Made by a program: the position numbers and the translations under genes
The notes under the pieces: model-generated
The model's database searches: none
What the model was told of the DNA's origin: nothing
The model's input: only the letters and a program-made list of their open reading frames with translations
Origin: a virus
Lineage: Duplodnaviria; Heunggongvirae; Uroviricota; Caudoviricetes
Virus record (IMG/VR): IMGVR_UViG_2778261176_000001
DNA length: 8,787 bases
Reading direction: 5' to 3' (one strand)
Shown: one piece after another, positions 2,653 through 8,417 of the stretch
Layout: the number at the start of each line of letters is the position of its first letter
Numbering within the stretch: the stretch's first letter is position 1

Positions 2653-2949
2653 TCACTCCTGTTCACTGGCCTCTTTGGCCATCTTCAAATACTGTTCAGG
2701 GCAATGCGCCATAACGCGCTGAAACAGTTCCAGCGCCAGATTGCGTTGCCCCTCATTAAATGCCATTGCCATAGCGTCCATCGGTGAGATAGCGGAAAAC
2801 ACACGGCCTTTCTCCAGCACCGACCAGACAACGCGACGCCCCTGTTCACTGCTCATGACAAAGCGAATGTCATCAATTTCACGCTGTGCCATGTCACGTT
2901 GCTTACGGGCGTTTTCTTCTTTCAGTTGATCGTCTTCGTAATCTGTCAT
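2653..2949 (-). CDS. Hypothetical small phage protein (98 aa) between portal and scaffold
   Basis: ATG start overlaps the portal stop (ATGA), suggesting translational coupling; stop lies within the SD region of the scaffold gene. Charged, helical-looking. Function unknown. Confidence 0.55.
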   Translation of the reverse strand: MTDYEDDQLKEENARKQRDMAQREIDDIRFVMSSEQGRRVVWSVLEKGRVFSAISPMDAMAMAFNEGQRNLALELFQRVMAHCPEQYLKMAKEASEQE

Positions 2950-4625
2950 TGTGATTGCCCACCCTGACCACTAACTGCATTAGCCATAGCTGACAAAACA
3001 CTCGGATCCGAAGTTTTAGCTTCGCTTAGCGTCTTGGCACCCTGTGCCGCCGCCATCCCCATCGCCATCATTTGTTGCTGCTGTTGTTGCTGTGCCCGTT
3101 GCTGGCGAGCCTGCTCAACCTGTTCCTGCGGAACAATGACGGTTGGAGACACTCCGGACATATCAGCGAATGCATCGATCGCCTGATCAACGTTGAGTTT
3201 GTCGAGAGCTTCTGGTTTCGCTTGCGCAAGTTGACCAATGAAGTTAACCGTGGACGCCAGACTGGACAGGCCGATAGACTTCTGCGCCTGAGCCATGACG
3301 GAAATGTATTCGACCTTCAGGGGCATACCTTCCATCGCGTCAGGCGGTGGCGGCAGCATGTTTTTACGCACCATCATCGAGAAAGCGCGGTCAATGAGAG
3401 GGTTAAGACATTCGTCGTTCAGACGCTCCAGAACCGGCCCCAACATCAGAAGTTTTTCTTCTTTCATTTCGATCACCGCTTCAACAGGCATCGAGCGGGT
3501 ATTGATGTTCTGCAACATCATGAACAGATCGACAAAGTAGGCGCTGTTAATGATTTGACGAGTGTCCTGAATGTCTGCTACCAGATCTGCTGTACTGGGG
3601 TTAACCAGATAAGCAGGCCTGAAACCATCCTGACCAGTAATCTGATCGATATACGTGATGTCGCCAGGAAGAAGGGAGGCGCGCTGATTCTTGAGGGAAG
3701 TCGGAGCAACCATCGGCGGATTGGTGGCTTTATCAATCAACTGCGACTTGCGCTTCTGGAGAAGCTGCAATGCCTTAACAGGTCCAAGCGCCAGCATACC
3801 CGGGCATGATGATCCATAAACATCTTCGCCATTAACTTCCCAGCGCGGAGCCATAATTGGAAACTCATCAAATCCGGACTCACGCAACAACTTGTCGTTA
3901 TCGCCACCAACCTCGTAATAAACCGATTTGAATGGCTTGTTCTTGCTATCCAGCTTCGATGTATCGCGGTCAATGTTCGGGTAAACCGAATGCATCACGT
4001 CAATCCACTTCTCGTAGGTGCCGCTTTCCCACATGCTTTTTACGGATTCGCTGACGTTATTTAGCCCGAACTCCTGAACAAGCTGACGAACAGTCATAGA
4101 GAACTTGCGAAAACAGGTGTCCACACTGCCACGAGGTGAGTTAGCCAGGTAGTAACTGCCTATCGGGAATGGCATTGTGCGAATGATGTCCTCGTCATCC
4201 TCCAGCACCGCCATTGCACCAGTGCTGTATGTGCCGAGGCTTCCGTATAACTGCGGAAGAGACTGGTAGAGATTCGACTTATTGAACATATCGTTCATGC
4301 GGTTCTGCACCGCCTCGAGCCACAACTTAACAGGACCATAATCCATCATTTCAGGATCTGGCGTAGCCAGGCGAAACCACGGACGCGCAGGGCTTGTGAT
4401 GCCTGACATCATGCCGCTGGCGAGAGTGCGCGCCGCCATAGTCCCGGTCGAATCAATAATGCGTGTATTGCGTCGATCGTTACGGTTGACCTCAGAAGTC
4501 AGAAAGCGGGAACCACGCGGGTTGATGTAATCACTCAACTCGCGCCAGTGCGGCTCGAACGACTGACGCTCGCTTTCAAGTTGTGCGAACTGTTTGTTCA
4601 ATCGCTCTTTAGTTGTTTCCGCCAT
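2946..4625 (-). CDS. Portal protein (T7 gp8-like head-to-tail connector family)
   Basis: 559-aa ORF with ATG start and GGAG SD. The N-terminal pattern and the Gln/Ala/Met-rich C-terminal tail (QQRAQQQQQQQMMAMGMAAAQGA...) resemble T7 gp8 as recalled from memory, not from an alignment. Confidence 0.85.
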   Translation of the reverse strand: MAETTKERLNKQFAQLESERQSFEPHWRELSDYINPRGSRFLTSEVNRNDRRNTRIIDSTGTMAARTLASGMMSGITSPARPWFRLATPDPEMMDYGPVKLWLEAVQNRMNDMFNKSNLYQSLPQLYGSLGTYSTGAMAVLEDDEDIIRTMPFPIGSYYLANSPRGSVDTCFRKFSMTVRQLVQEFGLNNVSESVKSMWESGTYEKWIDVMHSVYPNIDRDTSKLDSKNKPFKSVYYEVGGDNDKLLRESGFDEFPIMAPRWEVNGEDVYGSSCPGMLALGPVKALQLLQKRKSQLIDKATNPPMVAPTSLKNQRASLLPGDITYIDQITGQDGFRPAYLVNPSTADLVADIQDTRQIINSAYFVDLFMMLQNINTRSMPVEAVIEMKEEKLLMLGPVLERLNDECLNPLIDRAFSMMVRKNMLPPPPDAMEGMPLKVEYISVMAQAQKSIGLSSLASTVNFIGQLAQAKPEALDKLNVDQAIDAFADMSGVSPTVIVPQEQVEQARQQRAQQQQQQQMMAMGMAAAQGAKTLSEAKTSDPSVLSAMANAVSGQGGQSQ

Positions 4626-4639
4626 TTCAATGACTCCGG

Positions 4640-4846
4640 TTACTGACCAAGCAGCGTTTTACCGCTGGTATTAGCGGTTGATGTGTCGCCCTGAGAACCG
4701 GTAAGCAGCGTAGAACTACGACCAGCAGCAGCGCGACGGCGACGTGTTTCTTCGTCGCGGGCATCAACAACGGCGGCATCCTGCTCCTGTGGTGCTGCCT
4801 GAACTTCTGGTGTTGCAGGCACTGATGGTGAGCTACCCATGCACAT
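4640..4846 (-). CDS. Hypothetical small protein (68 aa), low-complexity Ala/Thr/Ser/Gln-rich with an Arg cluster
   Basis: ATG start preceded by CGGAGTCATTGAT, a near-identical copy of the portal's translation-initiation region (CGGAGTCATTGAA); TAA stop abuts the portal SD. GC-rich like the structural genes. Could be a head-completion protein; real but unproven. Confidence 0.4.
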   Translation of the reverse strand: MCMGSSPSVPATPEVQAAPQEQDAAVVDARDEETRRRRAAAGRSSTLLTGSQGDTSTANTSGKTLLGQ

Positions 4847-4869
4847 ATCAATGACTCCGTACGCAATTA

Positions 4870-4941
4870 AATTATTACCAATTTAACCACATATGATTTA
4901 TTTATCGTAGAAGGTTGACATTTAACGCGTGAATTATTACC
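4870..4941. repeat. 10-bp direct repeat AATTATTACC (4870-4879 and 4932-4941) flanking a TTGACA hexamer (4915-4920)
   Basis: Exact 10-mer twice within an AT-rich intergenic stretch; TTGACA matches the sigma70 -35 consensus but I found no convincing -10 at 15-19 bp spacing on the plus strand. Candidate promoter/operator region. Confidence 0.35.
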
Positions 4942-5273
4942 TTTCAGGTAACTAAAGAGCTCATTCTGGTTACTAACCTGACTGGCTTGTCGTTAAATTA
5001 AACAGGTGGAGTGAGCTTTTATTTTGAGCAGTACGGCGTATGGCACATGCGCCGATAGCGGTCTGGATACGTTTAAGGGGCACCCTCCCTTGCTCGGGCA
5101 AACGAACCAGGTAGCCAGAATGTGCAAGTCGAGCGGTTTTATTCCGCGCACGGGGATTCACCATCCCGGCGATTCGGTGTGACGCCTCGGAAGAGACGAG
5201 GGTACAACGATGAGAGCATTTATGGAGCCGCGACAAAGTGTGGCGCCTTAACAGGCTAAGTGCTCTCAGCGTT

Positions 5274-5350
5274 GTGGCATTAGCTCAGTCGGACAGAGCA
5301 ACCGCCTTCTAAGCGGTTGGTCGCAGGTTCGAATCCTGCATGCCACGCCA
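5274..5350 (+). tRNA. tRNA-Arg (anticodon UCU)
   Basis: Hand-folded cloverleaf: acceptor GTGGCAT/ATGCCAC, D-stem GCTC/GAGC, anticodon stem ACCGC/GCGGT with loop CTTCTAA (anticodon TCT), 5-nt variable loop, T-arm GCAGG-TTCGAAT-CCTGC, discriminator G, encoded CCA. All stems are Watson-Crick. Confidence 0.9.
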
Positions 5351-5393
5351 GAATCACGCCTAAGGACCGTGATGCCAGAAGTTCCAGGGGCTT

Positions 5394-5438
5394 GGCGGTG
5401 ATGGTTTCCCTTGAAGGACTATCACCGCCCTTTTTACA
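5394..5438 (+). terminator. Intrinsic terminator downstream of the tRNA
   Basis: GGCGGTGAT ... ATCACCGCC (9-bp stem, 18-nt loop with internal TCC/GGA pairing) followed by CTTTTTACA. Confidence 0.6.
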
Positions 5439-5513
5439 GCAGGACGCCATTGCGATGACTTCATGCTGTAAACCCGTACAGCCACGGAAGGCATAACTCA
5501 TTGCTTCCAGTTC

Positions 5514-5537
5514 GCCCGGTTCGCCGGGCATTTTTTT
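5514..5537 (+). terminator. Terminator/attenuator hairpin immediately upstream of the 140-aa ORF's SD
   Basis: GCCCGG-TTCG-CCGGGC (6-bp GC stem, UUCG tetraloop) followed by ATTTTTTT; the U-tract runs directly into the SD AAGGTGAG of the ORF starting at 5549. Confidence 0.5.
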
Positions 5538-5548
5538 AAGGTGAGATT

Positions 5549-5971
5549 ATGAAGACAATTGATATGTTGGCTAAGTATCTAAATGAATGGCCATTAAAAT
5601 ATTCTCGTATCGTTCAGGCTGAAGACTGCATTTTTTATGGCGTTTTTGCTGGTAATGAAATGCATTACGAAGTAATTCAGAGTGAGGGACTGACCGGGTT
5701 AACTCTTAGCGAAGACCATGGTACTAGCGTTACGTTCCATGACTGGATAACAGCACAACGTTCTGAAATGGAAAAAGGCGATGTGTTTGATATTTCTCGC
5801 TCTGTTTGCGCTAAAGCAAAAAGTGATAATGATTACATGAGCGAACACTTATACAACATGAAGCTACAGTGCCTTGCCGAGGTGCTTGGTAAAAAAGCTA
5901 TTGTCGATAAACAAGGCGCCATTAGCGAAGCAAAGGCAATAAATGCTGCATTTGATGAAATTATTTTCTAG
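5549..5971 (+). CDS. Orphan hypothetical protein (140 aa), AT-rich accessory gene on the opposite strand
   Basis: ATG start with AAGGTGAG SD; followed by its own terminator. Visibly lower GC than the flanking structural genes; no signal peptide or transmembrane segment by eye; no motif I recognise; no AGA/AGG codons. Confidence 0.7.
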   Translation: MKTIDMLAKYLNEWPLKYSRIVQAEDCIFYGVFAGNEMHYEVIQSEGLTGLTLSEDHGTSVTFHDWITAQRSEMEKGDVFDISRSVCAKAKSDNDYMSEHLYNMKLQCLAEVLGKKAIVDKQGAISEAKAINAAFDEIIF

Positions 5972-6061: not shown

Positions 6062-7537
6062 TTAATCATAGGGATCGTAATCTGTGATGGCCTTGCCTTG
6101 CTGGTTCTGCTGCCCGGGAATTCGCAGACGCTTCGACACAGGGAAAGCAAACGTCAGCAGTAGCGCATCGCCTTTACCCGGCGAGCGCCCAAGCCGCTCC
6201 TTGATATCTTCCTTCGGTTCGATAACGATTTTACCGTCCACGCGAACTTTGTACTCTGCCGCCGACAGGTCGTCCGCTGTTTCCTGGTCATCCAGCATGC
6301 CGCCCAGCCTCAGCCATGTCTTGCATGAGTTGAACATCTCCCCACGCTTGTTAAGCATCTGCGGGTCAGTAGACGCGCCACCGAACGGAACAAGTTGCCA
6401 TGTGCGCCCCCAACCGTCACCGATTGACTTCAGACCGGTACCGTAACCAAAGTCGATGAACACTGCGTCAGCCTGATACAGGTCTTCAAAGTCAGCGATA
6501 CGCTTCGCCATAATCAGATCGTCGGTAGTCTTGTTGCCAGTCCACAGCACCTTACTGTGTAGCCCCTGCCGCAGGTATATCACCGCGTCATCAACGCCTG
6601 AATATGCCGGGTCAACACCGATTATCACCGGAGCATGCGCCACCTGCGCAGCGGTTACCACCCGTTTCATTGCCTCATCAGTAAGACCGGTAGGGATAAA
6701 CTGCAATTCAGATGCATCAGGGAATATGCCGCGCACACGGATTTTAACGAAGTCGCTGTCTTCCCCGTAGTCATCAACCCATTTCTGCAACTGCTGTTTG
6801 TTAGTGCCTTCCACCGTCCGGCTGTCAATCTGCGCACACTTCCAGCGGTGTTTATATTTGCGGAAACATTCGCGGAAACGCCCGGTGTTACGTGTAGGGT
6901 TTCCGAACGCCACCCAGATAATCTCAGTGTCTTCGTCCGTAAGCGCACCCTCAGCAACTTCCCATACCAGATCCGCAATGTTCGACGCTTCGTCGAAAAC
7001 CACGATGATGCGTTTGCGCTCGTTGTGTAGTCCGGCGAATGCCTCAGTGTTGTGCTCAGACCAGGGGATTGCGTCAGCTCGCCACCGCTTGTCGTGCCCA
7101 GGATCATTGCTGTACATCGCGGTAGCGGTACAGGTAAACCAGTCTTTCGTGATAGCAAGGTTCGACCACTTGATAATTTCCGGCCAGGTCTTCGTTCGTA
7201 GCTGGTTGTCGGTGTTGGCGGTCACCACGACCTTACAATCCTCGCAAGTGGACATGCCCCAGTTGATCAGCATTGAGATGAATGCGGATTTACCAATACC
7301 GTGACCAGAAGCGCGTGCCAGCATAAGCGGCTGATAGCGCGTCTCTGGATTCTGCAGGTGATCACGTATCTCTCGGAACGCATCAGCCTGCCACTGACGT
7401 GGGCCGGTGGCATGTGCCAGTTCAGTCCCCTCTTCCCCCCACGGGAACGCATAGAGGGCATAGCCAAGCGGATCGTGAGTGAACCCTGCAATATCCTCGA
7501 TCAACTGCTCTTCAGGAGATAACGCTGTATCTGTCAC
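6062..7537 (-). CDS. terL: Terminase large subunit (ATPase + nuclease)
   Basis: 491-aa ORF; Walker A-like SGHGIGKS, Walker B-like IIVVFDEAS, C-terminal acidic nuclease-like motifs (IIGVDPAYSG, FIDFGYG); GTG start overlaps the terS stop (GTGA) with AGGA upstream. Confidence 0.85.
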   Translation of the reverse strand: MTDTALSPEEQLIEDIAGFTHDPLGYALYAFPWGEEGTELAHATGPRQWQADAFREIRDHLQNPETRYQPLMLARASGHGIGKSAFISMLINWGMSTCEDCKVVVTANTDNQLRTKTWPEIIKWSNLAITKDWFTCTATAMYSNDPGHDKRWRADAIPWSEHNTEAFAGLHNERKRIIVVFDEASNIADLVWEVAEGALTDEDTEIIWVAFGNPTRNTGRFRECFRKYKHRWKCAQIDSRTVEGTNKQQLQKWVDDYGEDSDFVKIRVRGIFPDASELQFIPTGLTDEAMKRVVTAAQVAHAPVIIGVDPAYSGVDDAVIYLRQGLHSKVLWTGNKTTDDLIMAKRIADFEDLYQADAVFIDFGYGTGLKSIGDGWGRTWQLVPFGGASTDPQMLNKRGEMFNSCKTWLRLGGMLDDQETADDLSAAEYKVRVDGKIVIEPKEDIKERLGRSPGKGDALLLTFAFPVSKRLRIPGQQNQQGKAITDYDPYD

Positions 7538-8130
7538 TGATTACAATCCTGACGTTCTTTGAGTCGCTTCCTGGCTGCTGCTATGCGATCAGCAATTGTC
7601 ACATTCACATTAACATCCAGGCGTTCTTTGAATGCATTGACATCGACGTGCTTACCAATCAGCTCAAGGTTCTTCACCTTGTCAGGCCATTTAATTTTTT
7701 TGAGGATTGTCTCTATCGAATCCTCGTTCATGTTCATGATGGTCGATGACAGATCAAAGCCGCTAAGCGTAGTGCGCCAGATTTTCGGCCACTCGCGGAT
7801 TGGCTTAAGGCTCCCATCGTCGTTGAGGATATCAATCACGTCCATCTGGTCGATCTCCACCAGGCGCATGAGAACGTAATCAGCACTGACACGCATTCGT
7901 TTGTTGCGCTCTTCCATCAGCTCGGCAATCCGTTTTTGAATGCGTTCATCGCGCATCATGACACTGGCTTTAACTGCCGCTGTATTTGGGGAGAATCCTG
8001 CGTTAATCGCTGCCTGAGTCTGGTTTTCAGGCGTTTTGATGTATGACTGGCAATAAGCCTCCTGCATTGCTGTGAGCGGCTTAAATTGCGTTGATTTGCG
8101 TTTATAGGTTTTAGGTTCAGCAGGCATCAT
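7534..8130 (-). CDS. terS: Terminase small subunit
   Basis: Directly upstream of and overlapping terL. The N-terminal region (KPLTAMQEAYCQSYIKTPENQTQAAINAGFSPNTAAVKAS) has the LTxxQxxFxxxY pattern of small terminase subunits as recalled from memory. The ORF-track start at 8208 is a TTG whose first 26 codons would translate a terminator hairpin and tandem repeats; I place the start at the ATG pair 8125-8130 (GGTGG upstream). The ATG at 8137-8139 is also possible. Confidence 0.7.
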   Translation of the reverse strand: MMPAEPKTYKRKSTQFKPLTAMQEAYCQSYIKTPENQTQAAINAGFSPNTAAVKASVMMRDERIQKRIAELMEERNKRMRVSADYVLMRLVEIDQMDVIDILNDDGSLKPIREWPKIWRTTLSGFDLSSTIMNMNEDSIETILKKIKWPDKVKNLELIGKHVDVNAFKERLDVNVNVTIADRIAAARKRLKERQDCNQ

Positions 8131-8138
8131 AACCACCA

Positions 8139-8169
8139 TGGTAATAGTTACCGTTGTGGTAATAGTACC
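8139..8169. repeat. Tandem near-palindromic repeats GGTAATAGTTACC / GGTAATAGTACC (10-bp exact direct repeat TGGTAATAGT, 18 bp apart)
   Basis: Read directly: 8139-8152 TGGTAATAGTTACC, spacer GTTG, 8157-8169 TGGTAATAGTACC; each unit has inverted arms GGTA(A)/(T)TACC. Located between a minus-strand terminator and the terS start. Candidate operator or TerS-binding (cosB/pac-like) sites. Confidence 0.55.
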
Positions 8170-8170
8170 A

Positions 8171-8199
8171 TGCAAAATAAAGCCGCCATAGTTGGCGGC
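8171..8199 (-). terminator. Intrinsic terminator between the 70-aa gene and terS
   Basis: Minus-strand RNA: GCCGCCA-ACUA-UGGCGGC (7-bp GC-rich stem) followed by UUUAUUUUG. Confidence 0.6.
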
Positions 8200-8204
8200 A
8201 GTAT

Positions 8205-8417
8205 TCAAAGTCCATCAAATTCATCGTAAAAACTCTCGTCAAGATACCCTTCCCATTTACCGCGAATGAAAATTACATCCTCGCCGCAAGGGTGCTGACT
8301 GTCGATAACTATATCCCTCCTGGCGCAACCATACTTATGCATGAGAAATTTAACCTCTTTCGGAAAATTTGCTGAGTTATCTCTCATATCTTCAAGGTCG
8401 TAGCGTATTTTTGGCAT
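8205..8417 (-). CDS. Hypothetical small protein (about 70 aa), AT-rich
   Basis: ORF-track ORF 8205..8438 starts at a GTG formed by the palindrome itself; the ATG at 8415-8417 is preceded by GAAGGTG and is the more likely start (MPKIRYDLEDM...). AT-rich relative to neighbours; function unknown. Confidence 0.5.
   Translation of the reverse strand: MPKIRYDLEDMRDNSANFPKEVKFLMHKYGCARRDIVIDSQHPCGEDVIFIRGKWEGYLDESFYDEFDGL

Follow-up and report, generated by a model that had tools for sequence, protein, structure and literature searches.

The window analyzed here, by which we mean the whole stretch of 8,787 nt, belongs to an E. coli prophage of the phiV10/epsilon15 type (Uetakevirus); in sequence comparison its identity is 97-99% both with phiV10 and with numerous chromosomes of E. 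coli. The minus-strand genes are terS (7534-8208), terL (6062-7537), a gp3 homologue of 68 aa (4640-4846), and portal (2946-4625). An insert on the plus strand separates terL from gp3, comprising the region of interest (4867-5273), a tRNA-Arg gene, terminator-like hairpins, and an ORF of 140 aa (5549-5971, plus strand). The tRNA-Arg(TCT) at 5274-5350 (found by ARAGORN, and by the Rfam tRNA model with 73.3 bits) is the cargo of the cassette described below. It is followed by a trailer hairpin, AUCACG..CGUGAU (5353-5373), which also comes after the cargo at other loci, then by a first intrinsic terminator (stem 5394-5429 plus a T run, to 5436), and by a terminator-like hairpin at 5514-5529 (terminator 5514-5537), all on the plus strand.

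Elsewhere in this insert, positions 5483-5537 (plus strand) give a weak match to the Rfam RyhB model (18.1 bits, E 1.3). The segment shares AUUGCUUCCAGU with RyhB and is ended by the terminator just before the ORF at 5549, and its counterpart in epsilon15 retains TTGCTTCCAGTT plus a terminator; judged from these letters, it may be a phage sRNA with a RyhB-like seed. In phage Tyrion (locus L007, 3903-3967), an int-alpA RNA match of 44 bits (gathering threshold 35.8) falls between plus-strand genes of the same insert.

The sequence items listed in a preliminary description of this DNA, made from the letters alone, were all found at the positions it gave when we read the sequence. That description saw no convincing ORF in 4867-5273, and we agree: a Pfam search with the ORFs of the region (87, 52, and 45 aa) gave zero matches, no reading frame is open throughout 33 homologues, and alignment gaps among these homologues are more often non-multiples of three than multiples (178 vs. 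50). Together these results rule out a protein-coding reading. Neither ARAGORN nor Rfam RF00005 finds a tRNA or degenerate tRNA in 4867-5273, and both detect only the gene at 5274-5350. Two hypothetical ORFs are annotated antisense in database records, phiV10p04 (L001 4681-4932) over the tRNA-Arg and mEp460 gp37 (L004 2443-2811) over the RNA element described below; probably neither is a gene. The covariance-model search proposed earlier as a check returned nothing beyond the tRNA, which alone passes the Rfam 15 gathering threshold in the window. With E values up to 10, no Rfam match overlaps 4867-5273, and the same is true of six related loci.

Predicted operator and candidate promoters at 4867-4952

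Bases 4867-4952 are a regulatory region. As the preliminary description stated, TTGACA (4915-4920) is flanked by two exact copies of AATTATTACC (4870-4879 and 4932-4941). Only the second copy sits in a palindrome; the first is included in a near-invariant 38-bp block (TTAAATTATTACCAATTTAACCACATATGATTTATTTA, 4867-4904) defined by a seven-phage alignment. The heptamer TATTACC occurs four times in the window against 0.49 expected, and the palindrome ATTACC-N5-GGTAAT three times against 0.18 expected; for both, 0/200 shuffles reached the observed count. The suggestion that TATTACC belongs to a shared regulator site is supported, the heptamer being part of this over-represented 17-bp palindrome. 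The copy at 4936-4952, ATTACCTTTCAGGTAAC (ATTACC-N5-GGTAAC), is identified as an operator from these statistics and an epsilon15 annotation, and it overlaps the -10 element and predicted start of the promoter described below. The other two copies are at 8129-8145 and 8147-8163, with a homologous pair in phiV10 at 86-120. The repeats that had been placed upstream of terS are therefore present but not upstream, given that the sites at 8129-8163 fall inside the 5' end of terS as annotated; either the terS start lies further downstream or the repressor binds inside the coding region.

The idea that TATTACC is peculiar to two entry points of the late region did not survive. A motif search across the phage genome, one of the checks named at the time, found the palindrome 15 times in the complete phiV10 genome (allowing up to two mismatches) against 0.94 expected, with nearly all copies intergenic. 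Those at 31952, 32014, and 32726 flank the repressor gene p40 on both sides, and in the epsilon15 record the homologous site is labelled a repressor binding site. For these two reasons the palindrome reads as a general prophage operator, not a late-region signal. Recurrence between genes and on either side of the repressor gene is what such an operator should show, and repressor binding there is predicted.

Conservation in relatives had been named as another check, and both the 38-bp block and the operator are indeed kept in seven Uetakeviruses. In these phages (of E. coli, Salmonella, Klebsiella, and Enterobacter) the block is identical or nearly so and its flanks vary. On the minus strand it reads TGGTAATAAT, which may be an extended -10 promoter for the gp3 and portal genes; a consensus promoter scan reports nothing in the block. 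On the plus strand, a candidate sigma-70 promoter (4915-4943) is made up of the -35 hexamer TTGACA at 4915-4920, a 17-nt spacer, and the -10 hexamer TACCTT at 4938-4943. In all seven Uetakeviruses, across four host genera, TTGAC(A/C) is followed by 17 variable bases and then by the conserved operator starting TACCTT. The scan does not report this promoter either, because its -10 matches only three of six consensus positions. What supports a candidate repressor-controlled plus-strand promoter, with transcription predicted to start near 4950, is that the seven phages have kept the -35 hexamer, the spacing, and the operator. Of the divergent promoters suggested in the preliminary description, the plus-strand one has conservation on its side but is missed by the consensus scan, and the minus-strand one is only a candidate.

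A pseudoknotted RNA joined to the tRNA

The stretch from about 4950 to 5273 would be the leader of the tRNA-Arg transcript, and its core (5028-5209, plus strand) is a conserved pseudoknotted RNA. The whole folded RNA, hereafter the element, is about 245 bases long and strongly conserved. The preliminary description had not recognised the GC-richer part as a member of a mobile RNA family, which covariation supports and which P1, lambdoid, and Stx phages also carry.

The fold was established by comparison. From 134 copies, 33 mutually different ones were aligned without reference to structure. In a six-helix structure tested on this alignment 91.4% of cells pair, as against 30-50% when the partners are slid by one to three columns, and 17 pairs (113 cells) have changed on both sides; 0/500 shuffles reached the observed values for pairing and both-side changes. 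When the alignment is read on the plus strand 94.2% of cells pair, compared with 82.4% on the minus strand. The minus reading pairs less well because 13% of the pairs are G·U, and this asymmetry indicates that the RNA is made from the plus strand, the same as the tRNA. A covariance model built from the alignment (R1) scores the window copy at 144 bits (E 6e-38). We rely on this comparative evidence because single-sequence folding is not decisive, with z-scores of -2.1 for either strand in the window and of -0.5 for the copy from P7.

The anatomy is as follows, with all features on the plus strand. A Uetakevirus-specific 5' leader (GTCGTTAAAT..GGTGGAGTGAGCTT, 4953-5027), shared with epsilon15, PAT1, Tyrion, and a Klebsiella phage, precedes the core, which is supported by the alignment, the pair counts, the strand test, and the covariance model. 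The core begins with H1 (5034-5042/5046-5054), then P2 (5062-5065/5108-5111), which encloses a variable domain, and P2b (5070-5073/5101-5104). An invariant block, GGUAGCC(G)GAAUGUGCAAG (5110-5128), leads to a variable hairpin (5133-5147) and to H4 (5153-5156/5164-5167). This last is the stem GGGA/TCCC with loop TTCACCA (5153-5167) that had been quoted earlier as a potential stem; it is real, and three of its four pairs covary across the 33 homologues. The CACC of its loop (5159-5162) pairs with GGTG (GGUG in the RNA; 5176-5179) to form the pseudoknot, which in mEp460-type copies has changed to AACC with GGUU, i.e., it covaries. The core ends with H5 (5184-5189/5197-5202), a covarying stem with the nearly invariant loop GAAGAGA. 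RNAalifold offers an alternative in which the invariant block takes up the loop and 3' side of H1 (GCACAU with AUGUGC), and the alignment cannot weigh this pairing because those columns never vary. A 19-nt block is identical in 133 of the 134 copies. At 5117, within the otherwise invariant GGUAGCCGGAAUGUGCAAG, the window has an A where the other 133 copies have G, and the window copy may be slightly damaged.

Beyond the core, a 3' extension (5204-5275) forms a long hairpin, ACAACGAUGAGAGCA ... UGCUCUCAGCGUUGU, with a variable tip and a minimum free energy of -35.6 kcal/mol. The hairpin shares its final two bases with the start of the tRNA, whose 5' end it abuts. The basal stem of this junction hairpin covaries across loci (AAGAGCA/UGCUCUU, CAAAAGAGC/GCUCUUUUUG, GGAGAGAGCA/UGCUCUCCCC), and the length of its insert or tip ranges from 41 to 249 nt. 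The earlier proposal of a leader RNA that would undergo processing along with the tRNA is supported for the 3' part. In SPN1S, 1720a-02, and Stx2a_WGPS2 (L009, L010, and L011), the hairpin tip has an insert of ~100 nt with two T-arm-like hairpins, CTGGTTCAATTCCAG and GTCCGTTCGATTCGGAC.

Distribution, neighbors, and cargo of the element

The window shares 4849-4951 and then 4986-5068 with epsilon15-like phages. From 5033 to 5273 it is ~82% identical to the lambdoid phages mEp460, cdtI, and the Stx2c and Stx2a converting phages, and from 5033 to 5195 it is ~79% identical to P1, P7, D6, and SJ46. A 19-base pattern from the most conserved block matches at least 120 IMG/VR contigs, and the core has 2421 matches, spread over 1812 of 5426 complete E. 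coli genomes. Plasmids account for 530 of these matches, and we take those copies to be P1-like. In a collection with one genome per species, the pattern scan returned 91 stretches, of which 23 were confirmed by the model and the others were chance matches. The confirmed copies are all from Enterobacterales save one on a 1.7-kb contig labelled Bacillota. This contig, from a MAG, holds the best-scoring genome match of the model (174.8 bits) and is probably mis-binned. Among the matches listed, the element is unannotated in 12 of 12 RefSeq records. We found no description of it in Rfam or the searchable literature, where the nearest published object is the adjacent sRNA-17 (see below). Epsilon15 itself (L003 1807-1882) has only the first ~75 nt of the element left (39 bits), the rest having been lost along with the tRNA.

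The element is a portable module: three phage groups with no relation to one another carry it, each at a genomic position unrelated to the other two. One such position is the Uetakevirus insert described above. In lambdoid phages, a cI-like repressor gene is followed by a terminator, two TTGC-N7-GCAA sites, and then the element. These sites match the type found in the cI/cro intergenic region, and none occurs between the element and the first early-left gene. As operator-like sites lie upstream only, we infer that the lambdoid element is in the leader of a PL-type operon; a consensus scan of the lambdoid loci gives no support for the promoter so predicted. ARAGORN and Rfam find no tRNA in the element at these loci. 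In P1 and P7, the element is in the C1-controlled ban operon, between tRNA-Ile and ban, starting 17 nt past the tRNA-Ile (anticodon CAT by ARAGORN) and ending ~100 nt before ban. Across the 134 loci, a tRNA-Arg is just downstream in 30 and a tRNA just upstream in 18, always in the same orientation. None of the protein-gene neighbors is constant among the loci compared, and a strong intrinsic terminator occurs within 900 nt downstream in 86 of 119 loci. Other RNAs were seen near some copies. Klebsiella-type phages (L014 3188-3307; also L089 and L114) have an RprA-like sequence after the element or its cargo (50.2 bits, which is below gathering, E 0.0012), with the seed GCUGUGUGUAGUC and a terminator. 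On the minus strand of mEp460-type lambdoid phages (L004 206-394, L005, and L010), a C4 antisense RNA and an isrK-like RNA precede the antirepressor gene of the rightward operon.

The junction at which the tRNA begins, ..GUUG|UGG, is retained in 80 of 127 loci, and what follows it is either tRNA-Arg (27 loci) or an RNA beginning GUGGU. The two main GUGGU types have a D-arm-like hairpin and a terminal T-arm-like hairpin plus (C/U)CACCAC, features by which we class these RNAs as putative tRNA-like cargos. One of them has been studied. Song et al. (2020) described sRNA-17, which has 193 nt and comes from a prophage of the mEp460 type in strain RS218 of E. coli K1; its ends were determined by RACE, and it was seen on a Northern blot (PMC7719688). 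When the published primers are mapped onto mEp460 (L004), sRNA-17 corresponds to 2738-2930, i.e., to the cargo right after the element, and it ends at the terminator. Its published 5' end falls no more than 3 nt from the junction at which, in our window, the tRNA starts. The fragment published as the "promoter of sRNA-17" (2488-2737) is the element; it was shifted in gels by phosphorylated ArcA at 20-80 µM protein (PMC7719688). The qRT-PCR amplicon used in RS218 (L004 2488-2883; PMC7719688) covers the element plus sRNA-17, which places both on one transcript and implies that the element is transcribed. The 5' end of sRNA-17 is more likely a processing site than a start site. RNA-seq coverage in a lysogen was very low (Table S6, PMC7719688). 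At L004 2738-2930 and similar loci, sRNA-17 looks tRNA-like, with an acceptor-type stem (GUGGUGA/UCACCAC), D-arm-like and T-arm-like hairpins, and a large insert at the place of the anticodon arm. It occupies the cassette slot of our tRNA-Arg. It should be noted that sRNA-17 is cargo and not the element, which was treated as its promoter, and that this window has a true tRNA instead.

What the leader may do

Among the known systems closest to the element are the put RNAs of phage HK022. These are cis-acting RNAs of ~70 nt, located just downstream of PL and PR, which bind the zinc-binding domain of the RNA polymerase beta' subunit and suppress pausing and termination (PMC9378689). A putL-like RNA is annotated in the HK639 record. 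The put RNAs of HK022 and HK639 and the element are alike in being folded RNAs just downstream of a repressor-controlled early promoter, with terminators further on. The lambdoid element has operator-like sites upstream only and the element of our window has an operator over the -10, with promoter activity predicted. There is also local identity. The first hairpin of each carries ACGGCG and CAUGCGUCG at its base and at the 3' end of its loop, and AGCG comes next: putL reads ACGGCG-CGUCUUUAAAC-CAUGCGUCG-G-GAGCG and the mEp460-type element reads ACGGCG-UAUGGCA-CAUGCGUCG-UU-AGCGG, so that 15 of 15 bases of stem I (ACGGCG..CAUGCGUCG) are the same. In 2.6 Mb of sequence, the pattern CGGC[GA]-N5-20-CATG[CT]G[TC]CG was found only in elements and in five putL-type RNAs. 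It is absent from putR and hence does not define the put family as a whole. The shared CAUG includes U28, which was reported as essential in the put structure paper (PMC9378689).

Membership of the put family was nevertheless rejected, since the covariance models fail to detect each other's members in both directions. A put model (R2, from five putL-type RNAs) scores HK022 putL at 99 bits, putR at 43, and PdC23 (a Pantoea phage) at 45, but gives no match at the element in six loci with E up to 10, and the element model R1 detects no put RNA. The element is longer (170-245 nt vs. ~70 nt) and has a pseudoknot and the GAAGAGA hairpin, both missing from put, whereas put has a conserved stem II loop, GGCGGG..CGGCAAUG, that is missing from the element. 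Unlike put, the element also occurs in P1 and Uetakeviruses beside tRNAs, and it is present as one copy per phage where HK022 has both putL and putR. A put-like mode of action for the element is, by this analogy, a possible and testable lead. A 14-nt exact match to HK022 was also considered and discarded as chance, as it lies within the nun coding region.

The reading that we rank first, at a probability of about one in three, is that the leader is a cis-acting, put-like modifier of early transcription that is then cut off by RNase P. In the prophage, the repressor at the operator (4936-4952) would shut off the plus-strand promoter. Upon derepression, a non-coding transcript would start near 4950 and run through the pseudoknotted leader (core 5028-5209, hairpin 5204-5275) into tRNA-Arg. 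The leader would act on the RNA polymerase that had just made it, much as HK022 put RNA does, keeping this long untranslated early transcript elongating past the two terminators (5394-5436 and 5514-5537) that precede the gene at 5549-5971. RNase P would separate leader from tRNA at 5273/5274, a cut that we predict from general knowledge of tRNA maturation, in which RNase P separates 5' leaders from tRNAs. We place action in cis first because the element sits in a PL-type leader, because terminators stand before the next genes, because the transcripts are long and untranslated, and because part of the sequence is identical to putL; the frequency of strong terminators close downstream (86/119 loci) also counts for it. 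Several points weigh the other way. The models do not cross-detect, the element is ~2.5 times longer than put with extra domains, and it is single where HK022 has putL and putR. The promoter is below the reach of the consensus scan. The 3' end of sRNA-17 is at a terminator downstream of the element, so that termination does happen there; P1 lacks a terminator between element and ban; and in the window, read-through continuing unchecked past 6011 would run antisense into terL.

Nearly as likely is that the leader is itself the product, a stable, trans-acting non-coding RNA freed by the enzymes that process tRNAs. Soon after induction or infection it would bind a host protein or RNA that is conserved, possibly for host take-over or counter-defence. 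The portability of the module, at three unrelated positions in three phage groups with no constant neighbor gene, would suit such an RNA, and the near-identity of the 19-nt block suggests contact with an invariant host partner. Its ends would be defined by an adjacent tRNA (48/134 loci) and by the junction hairpin, although the position of the 5' end differs among the three contexts. However, no RNA species of such a size has been reported, the coverage of a lysogen by RNA-seq was very low, and no target or partner was identified.

This trans-acting role has precedents in phage RNAs made with tRNAs or cut out by tRNA processing. The P1/P7 c4 antisense RNA and P4 CI RNA (Rfam RF01695) are cut from phage leader transcripts by RNase P. 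Like the element, they are phage non-coding RNAs of an early or immunity transcript, defined by tRNA-type processing; in contrast to c4 and CI, no complementary target sites were identified for the element, and in these same lambdoid phages the match of the Rfam C4 model is in the PR operon, away from the element. Species 1 and 2, the stable RNAs that phage T4 transcribes along with its tRNA cluster, are likewise structured phage RNAs on a tRNA transcript that are released by tRNA processing, but they come from a lytic phage and are likened to the element by description alone. Lambda nut sites share the early-left (PL) leader position, and H5 is a short covarying hairpin whose purine-rich loop, GAAGAGA, is boxB-like in composition only (the lambda nutL boxB loop is GAAGA). 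A lambda-type nut site was rejected on the grounds that the boxA consensus is absent from the element (the UGCUCUC in the junction stem is paired) and that no N-like gene was noticed among the downstream ORFs of the loci. The element is also far larger than nut and is present in phages that do not use N.

A broader reading, almost as likely as the one ranked first, is that the core represents an unrecognised class of portable phage RNA, not descended from put. Its partner would be some invariant machine of the host, be it RNA polymerase, RNase P, or a different factor of RNA processing or defence, and it would serve as a universal front end for phage tRNAs and tRNA-like sRNAs.

Rather doubtful, in our view, is a role for the element as a platform for maturation or stability, which would assist folding, RNase P or RNase III cutting, or protection of its tRNA or tRNA-like sRNA cargo. 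The junction gives this some appeal: it is conserved, leads into tRNA-Arg or GUGGU cargos, has a covarying stem, and is at most 3 nt away from the 5' end reported for sRNA-17. Yet the P1/P7 copies keep the core without the junction hairpin or downstream cargo, the core is more conserved than the junction hairpin, and ordinary tRNAs need no such leader. Two readings are contradicted by the covariation. It is very improbable that the conserved stretch works as DNA, i.e., as a promoter and ArcA-binding region of the downstream RNA gene, as was proposed for sRNA-17 when the fragment that is the element was shifted by ArcA. The compensatory changes preserve base pairs, including those of the pseudoknot, and the G·U pairs make the pattern strand-specific, whereas DNA sites evolve otherwise. 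In addition, the published qRT-PCR forward primer sits at the element start, so the element is transcribed; the consensus scan finds no promoter inside it; and the shift needed 20-80 µM protein. Least probable of all is a functionless, decayed remnant of tRNA genes or of a dead protein gene, to which T-arm-like hairpins in the variable insert of some relatives (TTCAATT, TTCGATT) and spurious ORFs annotated over the region in some records might point, given that ARAGORN and Rfam find no tRNA in the stretch, that there is neither an open frame nor a triplet pattern in the gaps, and that conservation of ~80% between unrelated phages comes with compensatory changes.

What lies at 4867-5273 is real: a widespread, unannotated, pseudoknotted leader RNA, joined to a tRNA and preceded by what we infer to be an operator-controlled promoter. 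A well-supported fold carried by 1812 of 5426 complete E. coli genomes, by the model phage P1, and by Shiga-toxin phages has no Rfam entry. For sRNA-17 the finding suggests a reinterpretation, in which processing of a longer early transcript of the phage would yield this virulence-linked sRNA as a tRNA-like cargo, and its "promoter" fragment would be the RNA element. Were the core indeed a portable class of its own, it would belong to a new non-coding expression cassette, made up of a repressor-controlled promoter, a leader, a tRNA-like cargo, an sRNA-like trailer, and a terminator. If the element acts in trans, it would be a new phage tool aimed at a conserved host component. RNA-only antitermination is known from the small HK022-type group (28 matching records in the phage collection) and, if the element acts on polymerase, would extend to a large share of temperate enterobacterial phages.
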